Positions 44,245 through 49,640 of a stretch of 64,000 nt of DNA are shown here, one piece after another. This DNA comes from Paramecium tetraurelia. Its lineage: Eukaryota. Location: positions 186,001-250,000 of the forward strand of contig CT867993.1 of NCBI GenBank assembly GCA_000165425.1, read 5' to 3'. Position 1 is the first letter of the stretch. Every line of letters starts with the position of its first letter. Under the pieces are notes generated by a model. It did no database searches. It saw only the letters and a list, made by a program, of their open reading frames with translations, and was not told the DNA's origin. A program made the position numbers and the translations under genes.

Positions 44245-45248
44245 ATGGATAAACAATGTAAAATATATAAGTCGAAGGAGATAGTTTACTCCAGGGATCC
44301 CAACGATGTAAGACTATATCTTAGTGAATTTTAAGAAAAAGAAAATCATAAATGGGTATAAGATTATGAAAATAATTGGGGAAGGATCATATGGGAAAAT
44401 TAAACTAGCAATTAAGGATAATCAAGAATATGCAATAAAAAAGATTAATAAGTTTATTCTGAAAAAGAAGAATAAAATGTACAAGAATCCCAATGGAAGT
44501 AATTAAATATAGAATTATTTAAAGCTACCAAGTATGTTTCATTGTTGGATGAAGTATACAGAGAAATAGAAATTCATCAAAAATTAGATCATCCAAACAT
44601 CGTCAAGATGCTTGAGATATATGATGATGAAGAGAGAGAGAAATTGTATGTGGTTTTAGAATATGCAGAAATGGGGCAAATTTTGAAATGGGAAAGCAAA
44701 TAAGAATTATTCACAGCTCCATGGAAATTCGATGAACTCACATTCAAAGATTATGCCAAACAAATGCTGACGGGATTGCAATATCTATAGTAATAATATG
44801 TTGCACATCGAGACATTAAGCCACACAATATACTATTGACCAAAAATCATCAGATTAAAATATGTGATTTTGGATCTGCTCAATAAATGTCTCCACAAAA
44901 TGACAGAGTAAAAGGTACTGAAGGAACATTTCAATTTGTTGCTCCAGAATGTTTAAGAGAAAATAAAAAAAGTGAAATTCCAGGCTATAGTGGTCATCTG
45001 GCAGATGTTTGGAGTTTAGGAGTTGTGTTCTATTGTGTAGTGGAATTGAGATTGCCATTTCAAAGTGAGATAATGTTGGAACTATTTAATTAGATAGAAA
45101 CTAAAGAGTATTGTATATTCTGTTAACATTAGAATTACAATGAAATATGATGGACCTGCAAAAGGTGTGATTCTCAAAATGTTGACTAGAGACACTAATG
45201 AAAGACCGAATGCAACCTAGTTATTAGAGGATCACATATTTTTAATGA
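44245..45248 (+). CDS. CaMKK-like Ser/Thr kinase
   Basis: IGEGSYGKIKLA, YAIKK, VYREIEIHQKLDHPNIVK, HRDIKPHNILL, DFG, GTEGTFQFVAPE, DVWSLG. The stop at 45246-45248 is in frame only if one T of a T5 run is an extra base. Confidence 0.88.
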
Positions 45249-45291
45249 TTTAGTATCGTAGTAGCATTTTTAGATATAATTAATTCTACAA

Positions 45292-45646
45292 TCACATCAT
45301 TTTGCTCAAGTACTTCACTCTTAAATTCATTATAAATGTTATACTCTACAGGTTAATATTCTGATTGAACAAAATTCCATTTCAAAATCAGACATCGCTT
45401 ATTGTCACATTCAAATTCAAAAACATACTCCTCTTTGTTAAAATAGGAATAATCGTAATTCAATCCAATTTCCCATACAAACACAACCCATTAAGGACCA
45501 AAGAGCTGATTCAATTGATTTCGAATGAATTCTGCCTAATTGACAAATACTTTCTATTTCTAGCTTCTTGAGAACACATCATAAATAGCCTCCTTGTGTA
45601 TTTAAGTTACATTATAGCCTTATCTAATGATGCTAAATTAACTCAT
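45292..45646 (-). CDS. Divergent dynein light chain LC8-like small protein (~109 aa)
   Basis: NQAEFIRNQLNQLFGPQWVVFVWE...YVFEFECDNKRCLILKW follows the LC8 pattern; one 25-nt intron. Confidence 0.5.
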
Positions 45647-46107: not shown

Positions 46108-47470
46108 ATGCTTAATTCATCTTAAACCAAAAGCACTATGGAGACAAAAAGGCCAATAATTATTGAACACAAATATAGCATTATCAAAAACATTTACAGA
46201 GGGAAACAATATAACATATATTTAGGTAATAGATGTAGAATTTAAGAGATAGGTAGCCATAAATAAAGAGGAGGTTAATGATTTCAATTCGGCAAATTTC
46301 AAAGATAGGTTTTACCTAATAAAGATGAGAAAGTAAGAATGTATTGCCATTTTAAGATAATCCTAACAAAACGAGATAATTCCAGAACTGCAATTTTTAT
46401 TAAGATTAAAGGACAGTATACTCCTATGTAATATTAATAGCCAACTGTGCTTCCATATTAGTCAAACATGGAGATCAGGTTATAAATGGCTAAAAATATC
46501 ATTATCAAATCCTATAGAGACATGGTCCTTCGATCAAGCTAGTTTACCATTATCTGTCCAAAAGCCTTCCTCTACCTCTACTGTGTCTCATAGCCATTTA
46601 AACTGTACTATTGAATACGAATATTGTAGTTAACTTGTCTTGAAGCCATCCACAGAAATTAAATAGTTCATAGGAATATTCGACCGAAAAAATTATTGCT
46701 TTCAACCAGTGGCAATGAAATCTTACTTTGCGATTTCAAATTTGCTAGTAAGTTCAAGTTGCAACAAGGATCAATTTGCTGTTTGGAAAACCACAATTCC
46801 AATTCAAGCAAACTATTCCTCAATAAATACTCAAGTATTAATTAGCATTTGAATCAATGTAAGAGTGTCAATACAACTATTAGTTCCCACACCTAAGGAT
46901 GATCTAGAGTCCCTAGCTTATATATTGTTAGTGTATGCAACAAATTCTAGTATCTTCAAGATAAAGGCTGATAATAAAGGGCTGAAACTCAAAAAATTGG
47001 AGAACATTAAATTATCGATGGTACCTGAAATTGCATTTAAATCCGCTCCAATTGAATTCATCCACTTTCTAAACTTAATTAAGACTAGCAATGCTAATGA
47101 CTATCCTTAAGAATATGAGAAGTTCAAATCATTATTTCGTAAGATTATTTAAGCCAAGGGATACAATGAAAAAGATTTATAATACACTTTATTCCATATG
47201 CAATTTCAGGAATCTCATTCCTAATAATAAAAAGTTTAGGCAAGTAGATTTAAGAAAATATCGAATCGCAAAGAGAGTTCTGAATAAGAGGCAATGGATG
47301 ATGAGTTTTCAGTTTAGTAGTGTAATACCGTTGGAGAGGATTGTACTATAGAACCAATCATAAAATCTGTAGGATCATAATCACATAAAAGCCTATCTGG
47401 TCTTAATTCACATAGACTTGAACTTGAAACTTAAATCATGAAACTCCAATTAACGAAGACTCGAAATTTA
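46108..47470 (+). CDS. Casein kinase 1-like pseudokinase (3' end unresolved)
   Basis: IVHRNIRPKKLLL, LCDFKFA, KYSSINQH, KDDLESLAYIL; catalytic Asp replaced by Asn. No in-frame TGA located before the next gene. Confidence 0.7.
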
Positions 47471-47540
47471 GTATATTTTTTAACAATTTTCTACATTTAT
47501 TAGACATAATTATAATGTTTTAGTGTCAATTAATAAATTA

Positions 47541-48158
47541 ATGAAATATTATATCATTCTTTGTTTAGTTGCAGCTACTTTGGCTGGATCTTGTGGATAA
47601 ACATGCTGCTAGGATTTAAAGACCAGAGCTGCCATGACTTATCACTATTATATTAATACAGGTAGATTTGTTGGAGGCAGTGGAGACTCTGCAATTAAAA
47701 CATTTGGATATTCTGGTTCCGGTCAAGTATCTAAAGTCATATGATAAAATGTAGTATAGAAATGATCCAGCATCTATGTGCATCAAGAACAAAGGTCCTG
47801 CTCCAGCCACTACTTATAAAATTACATTGTGCAAAAACACAATGCATAATCCCCCAGTTGACAGACCTTGTTCTTTTTGGATCGAGGCAGTAGATGAAAA
47901 AACAATGTGTGGCAGAAGTGAAATCTTCATCCACGGTTGTTAATGCTGTTCAAATGGAGATTGGACCGAACCACCTGTTGATGGATGTTCTGCAGGGTAT
48001 TAAATATTTGATTACATCATTGTAGATGCGTCATCATAAACGAAGCCAATAGAAAGAAGTTAAGAGTAGGAGACACTATAATTATTGAATAAAGGGATCC
48101 ATTGGGTGATGATGTTCAATTCTTGGAAGATTACTCTTAATTTGCACAAGAAGAATGA
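47541..48158 (+). CDS. Secreted Cys-rich Tlde1/DUF2778-like (L,D-transpeptidase-related) protein, 186 aa
   Basis: Signal peptide MKYYIILCLVAATLA; introns 47727-47754 and 47997-48025; motifs GYSGSGQYRNDP, NKGPAPATTYKI, CGRSEIFIHG, CSAGCVII. Confidence 0.78.
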
Positions 48159-48200
48159 AGCAATTGTTACATCATTGGACAATTATTTATCAAATTATTT

Positions 48201-48772
48201 ATGAAATGTTTTCTTGCTCTTTTATTTGTTGTCATAGCATAAGCTGGGAATTGTGGACAAACTTGTTATTAAGATTTGCCAACGAAACCTCCAATGACAT
48301 TCTATAAGTTTATAAGCACTGGGAGATTCTTCGGAGGCAATGGCGATTCATCGAATAGTACTTTTGGTTATTCTGGAACTGGAAAAGTATTTATTCTACA
48401 GACTCAAAACTAGTTTAGAAATGCTCCCACAGCCTAATGAAGAAAGAACTAAGGACCTGTTCCTGCAAATACTTAAGCAATAAAAAAATGCTAAAATACA
48501 ATGCATAATCCTCTAGTGGACGGGCTTGTTCATTTTAGATAAACAGCAAGGACAAAGACAAAATGTGTGGAAGAACAGAAGTTGTGATCCATGGATGTGC
48601 TGGTTGTACACCTAGTGATTGGAATGGAATGTACCATCTATTGATGGCTGTTCTGCCTACAGGGTGATAAGTAATTGCTAAGATAGATGTATCATCATAA
48701 ATGAAGAGAGTAGAAAAACTAAGAGTGGGAGACACTTTGATCGTTTAGGATTATGATACATTGATTGATTGA
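48201..48772 (+). pseudogene. Decayed tandem paralog of the Tlde1/DUF2778-like gene
   Basis: Same signal peptide layout, motifs (GYSGTGK, GPVP, CGRTEVVIHG, GCSA) and intron positions; in-frame TGA at 48438-48440 plus several indels. Confidence 0.8.
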
Positions 48773-48890
48773 AAGTATGAAATTAGATGACATCATCTTG
48801 GAGAAAGAATTATGTATGAATGAATTATTAATTTGCAATAATAATTCCTGTTATTATTAATTATATTTTTAGATAGAAGGTTTTTTCTTA

Positions 48891-49640
48891 TCATTTGGTT
48901 CTTTAATAAAATTCAAAAGCTGAATCGTACATTGTTTTGATATAGGGTGATAATTTTTAGAGAACATTTTTCAATGAAATTTGACAACATCCAGCCATTT
49001 CAGATATTGCGTTTAAATTTATACCTCCTTTTTCTTTGAATACGAAATCTCCTGATAATTTAATTAGGACTGATGCGATTACATGTTCGTGTTCTCCTTA
49101 AATAAGATTCAGATTCTTTAAATTTGAAAAGAAGAATTTGCATAGTGTTTAAAACTTCTGATTAAATCCTATGCCTTTACAAATTCTAGCCATGAAAGCT
49201 ATGGTAAAGGCGTCTTCATTAAATGGTTCAAATTGGTTTAGTTGATTCAGGATCTTGCGTACTTACTTATCATTCACATCTATAATTTAAATAACTTCGT
49301 TGACTCTTAATGGGACGAGCAGAATTCTTAAAGATTATATAATCAATGCACATGCTATTGATTAATATTTTTTCGATTTTACTTTCTCTATTAACTCACT
49401 ATTCAACATCTCGAAACATTTGGCCTTGATCGTGTCTTGATTTAAATCACTTAAGAATTAAGGATTATCTTGTGAGAGTTTTTTGAGCATTTCATCGATT
49501 AATAGGTTAACTTGTTTAAGTCTTCTTTTGTCGGATTTCTGCAATTCTGGCATCTGTTTTGTTTCTTTGATTTATTTCTGTGCTACTAAATTCCAATTGA
49601 ATTTGGGAGGAGGTGGTCTTTAGCTAATTTTGTAATTCAT
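48891..49640 (-). CDS. TFIIB-like protein: two cyclin-fold repeats, no zinc ribbon (249 aa)
   Basis: KSKKYQSIACALIIQSLRILLVPLRVNEVIQIIDVNDKQVRKIL and FMARICKGIG...LNLIQGEHEHVIASVLIKLS...LNAISEMAGCCQISLKNVLQKLSPY align by eye to the two TFIIB core repeats. Confidence 0.7.

Follow-up and report, generated by a model that had tools for sequence, protein, structure and literature searches.

A ciliate-wide clade of Tlde1-type enzymes, predicted to be secreted and disulfide-rich, is represented by a spliced gene of Paramecium tetraurelia

The gene treated here occupies positions 47541-48158 of a 64,000-nucleotide stretch of the Paramecium tetraurelia genome (assembly GCA_000165425.1, contig CT867993.1, positions 186,001 to 250,000 of the forward strand), which is called the window throughout and is numbered from its first letter. 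It is a true host gene, with two spliced introns, five TAA or TAG codons read as Gln, a host-like content of guanine plus cytosine (GC) and poly(A) RNA, and it is almost certainly a genuine ciliate member of the family to which the Salmonella toxin Tlde1a belongs. The reading favoured, with moderate confidence, is that its predicted product is an expressed, disulfide-rich enzyme of the secretory pathway, placed in the Tlde1 branch and in an old ciliate clade, that would act on bacterial peptidoglycan. The clade is old and ciliate-wide, and most likely descended from a peptidoglycan enzyme of the polymorphic-toxin or phage type.

Gene structure and expression

The gene is formed by three exons, all on the forward strand and read under genetic code 6. 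Exon 1 (47541-47726) encodes 62 amino acids (residues 1-62), the same as residues 1-62 of the database protein P0004, and comprises a hydrophobic N-terminus (residues 1-16, a putative signal peptide), a CxxxCC extension and the first part of the Tlde1 domain (GYSGSGQ). Intron 1 (47727-47754) has 28 nucleotides (nt) with the form GTA...TAG; its retention brings an in-frame TGA, and a 67-residue open reading frame (ORF) ends inside it. Exon 2 (47755-47996) contains the core of the domain in 80 codons (residues 63-142), among them those of Arg116 (47914-47916) and His122 (47932-47934), and finishes with the GG of Gly143. Intron 2 (47997-48025, 29 nt) is again GTA...TAG. Exon 3 (48026-48158) provides the A completing Gly143, followed by 43 codons and the TGA stop (48156-48158). 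The codon of the predicted catalytic cysteine, Cys144 (48027-48029), stands directly after the split Gly143 codon, and the rest of the exon encodes the last strands of the domain together with an acidic helix at the C-terminus, residues 144-186 being 100% identical to P0004.

The spliced product of 186 amino acids (aa), in which five in-frame TAA/TAG codons are read as Gln, is letter for letter P0004, that is, Paramecium tetraurelia GSPATT00028763001 (XP_001425126.1, UniProt A0BGR1), located on a macronuclear scaffold of 302,836 bp. Its automatic name in UniProt/UniRef is 'Tlde1 domain-containing protein'. The gene model and the domain label are already public; what is new is that the clade, together with its age and features, is recognised. 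The GC of the gene, 0.33-0.36, is like that of its surroundings. Cysteines are found at positions 8, 18, 22, 23, 71, 88, 101, 114, 124, 126, 127, 140 and 144. An initial annotation, made from the letters of the window alone, had proposed the three-exon, code-6 model of 186 aa with an intron splitting the Gly codon just before Cys144, and the translation, the identity to P0004 and the RNA described below agree with it. The four motifs that it quoted, GYSGSGQYRNDP, NKGPAPATTYKI, GRSEIFIHG (with His122) and SAGC (with Cys144), are all present, as are the 12 cysteines that it counted beyond the hydrophobic N-terminus.

Transcription was examined in three oligo-dT RNA runs with the same species label, the 58-nt reads of which were mapped to positions 47300-48900; a fourth run (X4, contigs) covers only 47300-47503, outside the gene. 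The three runs gave 1228, 1567 and 1937 mapped reads, all in one strand orientation, with peak bin depths over the gene of 223, 277 and 364 and a depth of about 0 upstream of 47516. No spliced joints were called automatically in the mapping of these short reads, and the junctions were taken from their loose ends. The overhang at 47726 is TATAGAAATGATC, the start of exon 2 (38, 37 and 47 reads in the three runs), and the overhang at 47996 is ATGCGTCAT, the start of exon 3 (12, 16 and 20 reads). Reciprocal overhangs were seen at 47755 and 48025, and both junctions are exact in the three poly(A) runs. Both introns are therefore removed in vivo. As a candidate for the class of domesticated toxins, the gene presents the structure, code and transcription of its host, and it has orthologs both in five species of the aurelia group and in further genera of ciliates.

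Family assignment, catalytic residues and predicted structure

The whole protein is matched by Pfam family PF10908 (Tlde1_dom, formerly DUF2778) with E=2.4e-26 and 92.9 bits, the cut-off being 30.1, and residues 56-152 are aligned with positions 5-101 of the 120 in the profile. Exon 2 alone is matched with E=2.3e-17 and 64 bits. In the profile alignment R116..I-H122-G and S141-x-G143-C144 are placed on R115..I-H121-D and S-H-G130-C131 of Tlde1a, so that the equivalents of R115, H121, G130 and C131 are all kept. The motif H-x(n)-(S/T)-x-G-C-h is likewise present, formed by His122 and S141-A-G143-C144-V, its counterpart in Tlde1a being RGGFYIHD...SHGCI. According to the structure paper (PMC9638812) and the founding preprint (10.1101/2020.02.18.954545) on Tlde1a, H121 and C131 are required for toxicity, C131 is the catalytic cysteine, and R115 and G130 are conserved across the Tlde1 subfamilies; R115 and G130 are linked by the authors to the exchange of D-amino acids. 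The Paramecium protein is predicted, with high probability, to be catalytically competent.

The AlphaFold2 model, built on an alignment of 102 sequences, has a mean predicted local distance difference test score (pLDDT) of 89.7 and a predicted template modelling score (pTM) of 0.84. In a Foldseek search of the PDB with it, 45 matches reached E<=1e-3 and, among the matches listed, all are L,D-transpeptidases or Tlde1a. When the Foldseek matches were realigned (VIA-align), three Salmonella Tlde1a entries were in the lead, 7uo8_A with Z 12.3 and a root-mean-square deviation of 2.9 A over 120 residues (model residues 30-171), and the runners-up were the L,D-carboxypeptidases Csd6 (Z 11.8), Pgp2 (11.2) and Bd1075 (10.0). 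Classical L,D-transpeptidases rank after these, with VIA-align Z of about 9-9.8 and Foldseek E from 6e-5 to 1e-3. The modelled fold is of the L,D-transpeptidase type, in the Tlde1 branch. The closest structural neighbours are all L,D-carboxypeptidases, which fits an L,D-carboxypeptidase action, with a margin over the transpeptidases of only about 2-3 Z units. The Tlde1/DUF2778 identity suggested in the initial annotation is upheld by a PF10908 score far over the cut-off, by Tlde1a as top structural match and by the active-site residues kept. Matches to complement factor H (phmmer, E 0.0067) were rejected as chance hits through a Cys/'WTEPP' patch.

Among known enzymes the nearest is Tlde1a (Tae5), an antibacterial effector of a type VI secretion system (T6SS) encoded in Salmonella pathogenicity island 6 (SPI-6) of Salmonella Typhimurium (PDB 7UMA, 7UO3, 7UO8). 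It is also a small single-domain protein of PF10908; its catalytic pair, His and Cys, and its conserved Arg and Gly fall on those of the Paramecium protein, and the Cys pair of '..QC..' and '..CG..R' is present in it as well. The Paramecium protein differs in that it comes from a eukaryotic gene, has a signal-like N-terminus, is no T6SS cargo and lacks an immunity gene. It also has an additional CxxxCC segment in its N-terminal part and an acidic helix at the C-terminus, and its identity to Tlde1a is only about 15-16%. The catalytic barrel of the YkuD type is shared with Csd6 of Helicobacter pylori (4XZZ), Pgp2 of Campylobacter jejuni (6XJ6/6XJ7) and Bd1075 of Bdellovibrio (7O21), which are, in contrast, multi-domain bacterial housekeeping or shape enzymes with 11-14% identity and without the Cys-rich decoration. 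The D-amino-acid pocket of Tlde1a is compared with that of Csd6 in PMC9638812. The classical L,D-transpeptidases of PF03734 (YkuD, LdtMt1/2/3/5 and Ldtfm) have the same fold and the same H...(S/T)xGC catalytic logic, but they build 3-3 cross-links for their own cell and their profile is not matched by the Paramecium protein at E<=0.01.

Distribution among ciliates

A HMMER pass over 1.84 billion representatives identified 146 proteins at E<=1e-3, of which 41 reached 1e-10 and 6 reached 1e-30. The common architecture of the close relatives is formed by a hydrophobic N-terminus, C-x3-CC, 'TYxYYQNTG', 'GYSG', 'QC', 'RPCSF', 'MCGR..FIHGCxCC' and 'PP..GCSAGC'. Distant relatives (about 25-40% identity) contain plain 'IHGD...ASxGC' domains, and some of them, of bacterial type, are fused to Rhs repeats (P0156 and P0177). 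A profile of the Cys-rich form (14 members; 3274 candidates with lengths of 75-378 aa) gave 73 clusters at E<=1e-5. Two of these are from Paramecium, one from Tetrahymena (T. thermophila TTHERM_00486700, T. malaccensis and T. utriculariae) and one from Pseudocohnilembus persalinus (PPERSA_03828), the other 69 being metagenome or transcriptome sequences. The three Tetrahymena species and Pseudocohnilembus present the same architecture as the Paramecium protein, with 49-51% identity.

Within the 73 clusters, HGC and SxGC are kept in all 54 members of at least 150 aa. In an alignment of 93 rows, picked by the presence of HGC and SxGC so that those columns, including Gly143, are invariant by construction, Arg116, Cys71 and Cys114 are each found in 92 rows, and Cys88, Cys101, Cys140, Asp131 and Pro135-Pro136 in all 93. 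A signal-like hydrophobic N-terminal run was identified, by a crude test, in 43 of 49 relatives of at least 170 aa. Orthologs are 97% identical in P. octaurelia, 94% in P. pentaurelia, 93% in P. primaurelia and 89% in P. sonneborni. The conservation of the residues, of the N-terminus and of the orthologs argues for a working enzyme under selection.

Two unrooted trees were built. In the quick one (130 rows) the Cys-rich clade comprises 26 rows, with a support of 99 in the Shimodaira-Hasegawa-like approximate likelihood ratio test (SH-aLRT) and a stem of 1.68, and 10 Paramecium rows (support 99) are nested within it. The careful tree has 89 rows, 20 long-branch rows and P0096 having been left out, and its bootstrap is not fully settled; in it a ciliate-type clade of 22 rows, including Paramecium, Tetrahymena and Pseudocohnilembus, has a support of 100/99. 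The stem of the ciliate clade measures 1.23-1.68 changes per column in the two trees. The clade is a single long branch among phage-type and presumed mostly bacterial rows, in trees that are unrooted and weakly supported at depth. Since the three genera form one clade at 100/99, the acquisition predates the split of Paramecium, Tetrahymena and the scuticociliates, and since the Cys-rich, secreted-looking form is found throughout the clade, the signal-like N-terminus and the set of cysteines were present in its ancestor, before Paramecium arose. A bacterial ancestry is suggested because the family is overwhelmingly of bacteria and phages, amid whose sequences the ciliate clade stands as one long branch.

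Genome contigs were also scanned with a pattern for the Cys-rich form. This gave nine pattern matches, two of which were confirmed (L036 and L037), both filed under a 'Desulfosporosinus' metagenome-assembled genome (MAG); the scan detected no bacterial genome containing the Cys-rich form, although with a single narrow pattern such an absence is not proven. The two contigs (L036, DYPS01000081.1; L037, DYPS01000007.1) are labelled Desulfosporosinus sp. and yet are not bacterial. Almost no long ORFs are found on them under translation table 11, and they contain exon-sized fragments of PP2A-B56 and of an H+-pyrophosphatase. Their Tlde1-like genes are intron-less and use TGA as stop, and in-frame TAA/TAG codons stand in them at just those positions where the relatives contain Gln or Glu. 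Judged by these coding features, both contigs are ciliate-code eukaryotic DNA mis-binned in a bacterial MAG.

Relatives in giant viruses, a diatom and phages

In the ESM Atlas the clusters nearest to the Paramecium protein are Tlde1-domain proteins of Nucleocytoviricota. A scan of IMG/VR identified 35 viral loci with a Tlde1 domain, in two groups. The first comprises 24 loci (L006-L010, L013-L018, L020-L031 and L033) on contigs of the giant-virus type with GC of 0.25-0.36, eight of them labelled GVMAG, and the encoded protein is secreted-looking, with 163-183 aa and 9-10 Cys. The second comprises 11 loci of the phage type (L001-L005, L011, L012, L019, L032, L034 and L035) with GC of 0.40-0.67, the products of which are plain Tlde1 domains of some 120 aa that lack a signal peptide. 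A 'Tlde1 domain-containing protein [uncultured Caudovirales phage]' is listed by BFVD among the top structural matches.

The giant-virus form resembles the ciliate one in its PF10908 domain, its hydrophobic N-terminus, its many cysteines and its association with eukaryotes. In the careful tree it forms a clade with the diatom protein P0178 of Aulacoseira subarctica and with P0114 (support 98/87), separate from the ciliate clade. Its motif is IHGGxCSxxPSEGC (also given as IHGGxCSGNPSEGC) whereas that of the ciliates is IHGCxCC...PPxxGCSAGC, and against the Paramecium protein it has 25-34% identity and another cysteine pattern. The Tlde1 family may have entered further eukaryotic lineages. The Aulacoseira subarctica proteins P0178 and P0200 (MMETSP) are secreted-looking and have a low-complexity N-terminal region with PT repeats. 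Three other secreted-looking Tlde1-domain proteins (P0115, P0126 and P0145) also present low-complexity N-terminal regions, with acidic repeats in P0115.

Origin of the gene

The origin proposed here, an old acquisition at the base of a ciliate clade, has to be weighed against other explanations. An artefact, whether contaminating bacterial DNA in the assembly or an ORF arisen by chance, has practically no probability: only the bacterial flavour of the domain speaks for it, against two introns removed in poly(A) RNA, five in-frame TAA/TAG codons read as Gln, a GC matching the surroundings, a location on a Paramecium scaffold of 302,836 bp and the occurrence of orthologs in five species of the aurelia group. 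The initial annotation had instead suggested that Paramecium itself acquired the gene from bacteria and then added the signal peptide, the disulfides and the introns. A recent transfer of this kind would agree with a family described as mainly bacterial in the founding preprint (10.1101/2020.02.18.954545) and with two introns that are not shared with the intron-less ciliate-code gene of L036. It is very improbable nevertheless, as the same architecture is found in three Tetrahymena species and Pseudocohnilembus at 49-51% identity, Paramecium is nested in the 22-row clade (100/99) and the signal-like N-terminus and cysteines are clade-wide. Acquisition by Paramecium itself is thus not sustained, and of the features said to have been added there only the introns may be specific to its lineage. 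A phylogeny had been suggested with that annotation, and the ciliate-wide clade that it recovered contradicts recent transfer. The annotation's idea of domestication is favoured by the evidence.

It is also unlikely that the gene reached the ciliates by way of giant viruses, or was exchanged with them, the ciliate, giant-virus and diatom forms deriving from one entry. The secreted-looking protein with 9-10 Cys encoded by 24 of the 35 viral loci and the Nucleocytoviricota clusters nearest in the ESM Atlas are in line with such a route, as is the careful tree, where the ciliate and the giant-virus/diatom clades are sisters and form, with three secreted-looking proteins, a group supported at 88/85. 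The sister relation itself, however, is supported at no more than 80/0, with a branch of 0.044, the larger quick tree separates the two clades, and the two forms differ in cysteine pattern and share only 25-34% identity.

Proposed function

In the mechanism proposed, the N-terminal signal would route the protein into the secretory or lysosomal pathway and then be removed, and the mature protein would reach a compartment where bacteria are met, either the food vacuole or lysosome or the medium. The conserved cysteines other than Cys144 would form disulfides, stabilising the protein outside the cytosol. Cys144, with His122, Arg116 and Gly143, would attack the bond between meso-diaminopimelate and D-alanine (mDAP3-D-Ala4) in tetrapeptide stems, as Tlde1a does. 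Such an L,D-carboxypeptidase action, or an exchange of D-amino acids, would deplete the donors of cross-linking and lower cross-linking, which would help to kill or digest prey or intracellular bacteria. Bacterial peptidoglycan is narrowly favoured as the physiological substrate. Ciliates have no peptidoglycan of their own and the hosts of this gene are bacterivores; ciliates that feed on bacteria have probably retained a bacterial weapon and turn it on bacterial walls.

The alternative that bears on function is that the fold was kept and the job changed, the substrate being now another peptide or D-amino-acid-containing compound, or the reaction being the cross-linking of proteins that the ciliate itself secretes, in the manner of certain bacterial L,D-transpeptidases, by which proteins are attached to the cell wall. 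A changed job would be in agreement with the long stem of the clade (1.23-1.68 changes per column), with the clade-specific N-terminal CxxxCC and the four-Cys insert, which more than doubles the spacing between His and Cys, and with hosts lacking peptidoglycan. It is regarded as unlikely, given that the residues of Tlde1a for binding the D-amino acid and for catalysis (R115, H121, G130 and C131) are all kept clade-wide, that the top structural matches are peptidoglycan L,D-carboxypeptidases and that in bacterivorous hosts the ancestral substrate is constantly at hand.

An enzyme still directed at bacterial walls is thus the preferred reading, and the following observations weigh against it. 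The YkuD profile (Pfam PF03734) has no match to the 186-aa protein at E<=0.01, so that the kinship to YkuD enzymes claimed in the initial annotation holds at the level of the fold (Foldseek and VIA-align) and not at that of the profile. No family was identified in an NCBIfam scan of the protein, no Ldt or Tlde1 in a single-sequence phmmer search against PDB sequences, and the 102-sequence profile reaches the solved Tlde1a only at E=0.029, a weak link when sequences alone are compared. His and Cys are 22 residues apart, in contrast to 10 in Tlde1a, with four cysteines inserted between them, and given this spacing and insert the substrate pocket may differ from that of Tlde1a. The trees are unrooted and weak at their deep forks, hence donor and direction of transfer are not fixed by them. 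Expression in the RNA runs is not tied to feeding. Neither GSPATT00028763001 nor TTHERM_00486700 is the subject of a paper in the full-text literature searched (supplements and subscription journals being outside the search), and for the ciliate members secretion, substrate, cellular site, bacterial ancestry and direction are all inferred.

Relation to other domesticated toxins

In the same literature no paper joins Tlde1 with ciliates or with giant viruses, and none of the papers naming DUF2778 is on eukaryotes, judged by title or by the start of the abstract. The words Paramecium, ciliate and virus are all absent from the text of the preprint 10.1101/2020.02.18.954545, which reports 6332 DUF2778 sequences in alpha-, beta- and gamma-proteobacteria. 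The range of Tlde1 given there is widened here to ciliates, a diatom and giant viruses. The ciliate form is a eukaryotic variant of a known toxin family, unpublished-looking but visible in databases, in two tractable models, and is less surprising than first thought.

Few cell-wall toxins of bacteria are known to have passed into eukaryotic use, and the tick amidase Dae2 is the best studied of them. The Dae genes are domesticated amidase effectors, and the Tae amidases are papain-like. The Dae genes of ticks and other eukaryotes are a precedent on the same evolutionary theme, in which a eukaryote retains a family of peptidoglycan toxins used between bacteria and secretes it as an antibacterial factor. 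The enzyme family is unrelated, and the function of Dae2 is proven experimentally whereas that of the ciliate Tlde1 is predicted. It is tentatively proposed, at somewhat less than even confidence, that Tlde1-type L,D-carboxypeptidases are the second family of interbacterial wall toxins domesticated by eukaryotes, after Tae/Dae: a disulfide-stapled, secreted trimmer of the stems of ingested or resident bacteria, present early in oligohymenophoreans, together with a second version in giant viruses and a diatom, so that viruses of protists may ferry and use antibacterial weapons. An ancient, conserved and well-expressed Tlde1-type enzyme in both main ciliate model organisms would offer a tractable genetic system for asking how protists that feed on bacteria kill and digest them or keep endosymbionts in check, and a test of how a toxin acting in the periplasm is refitted for the eukaryotic secretory pathway.

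Genomic surroundings and the decayed tandem copy

No Pfam family of immunity or T6SS proteins was identified among the neighbouring ORFs scanned, where the sole match, a weak one, is to dynein light chain (44744-45646). The gene is a member of the Tlde1 domain family and not of the Tlde1/Tldi1 effector-immunity system of the T6SS.

A decayed second copy, of the type of a 187-aa paralog, is located downstream on the forward strand (48201-48775), as identified by DNA alignment and tblastn; no third copy was found in the 64-kb window. Three kinds of damage are seen: TGA stands in place of the conserved Cys71, the frame shifts after 'PLVD', and SxGC is lost through additional indels. With the intact paralog P0027 as query the tblastn match is split over two frames with an in-frame stop. 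A selenocysteine reading of the TGA at Cys71 was considered for this copy and is ruled out by the downstream frameshifts. Its public model, GSPATT00028764001, is garbled (144 aa, P0058) and contains no Pfam family. The decayed copy is nearly silent, with an RNA bin depth of 0-5.8, compared with peak bins of 223-364 on the intact one, and these reads probably cross-mapped from the intact paralog on another scaffold and are not pseudogene transcripts.

The intact 187-aa paralog of P. tetraurelia is GSPATT00026852001, on that other scaffold. In P. sonneborni both gene types are intact and in tandem on one contig, and in P. pentaurelia the neighbour is garbled too. Most of the RNA reads on the decayed copy of P. 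tetraurelia present A>G and G>A differences, at positions 48705 and 48710.

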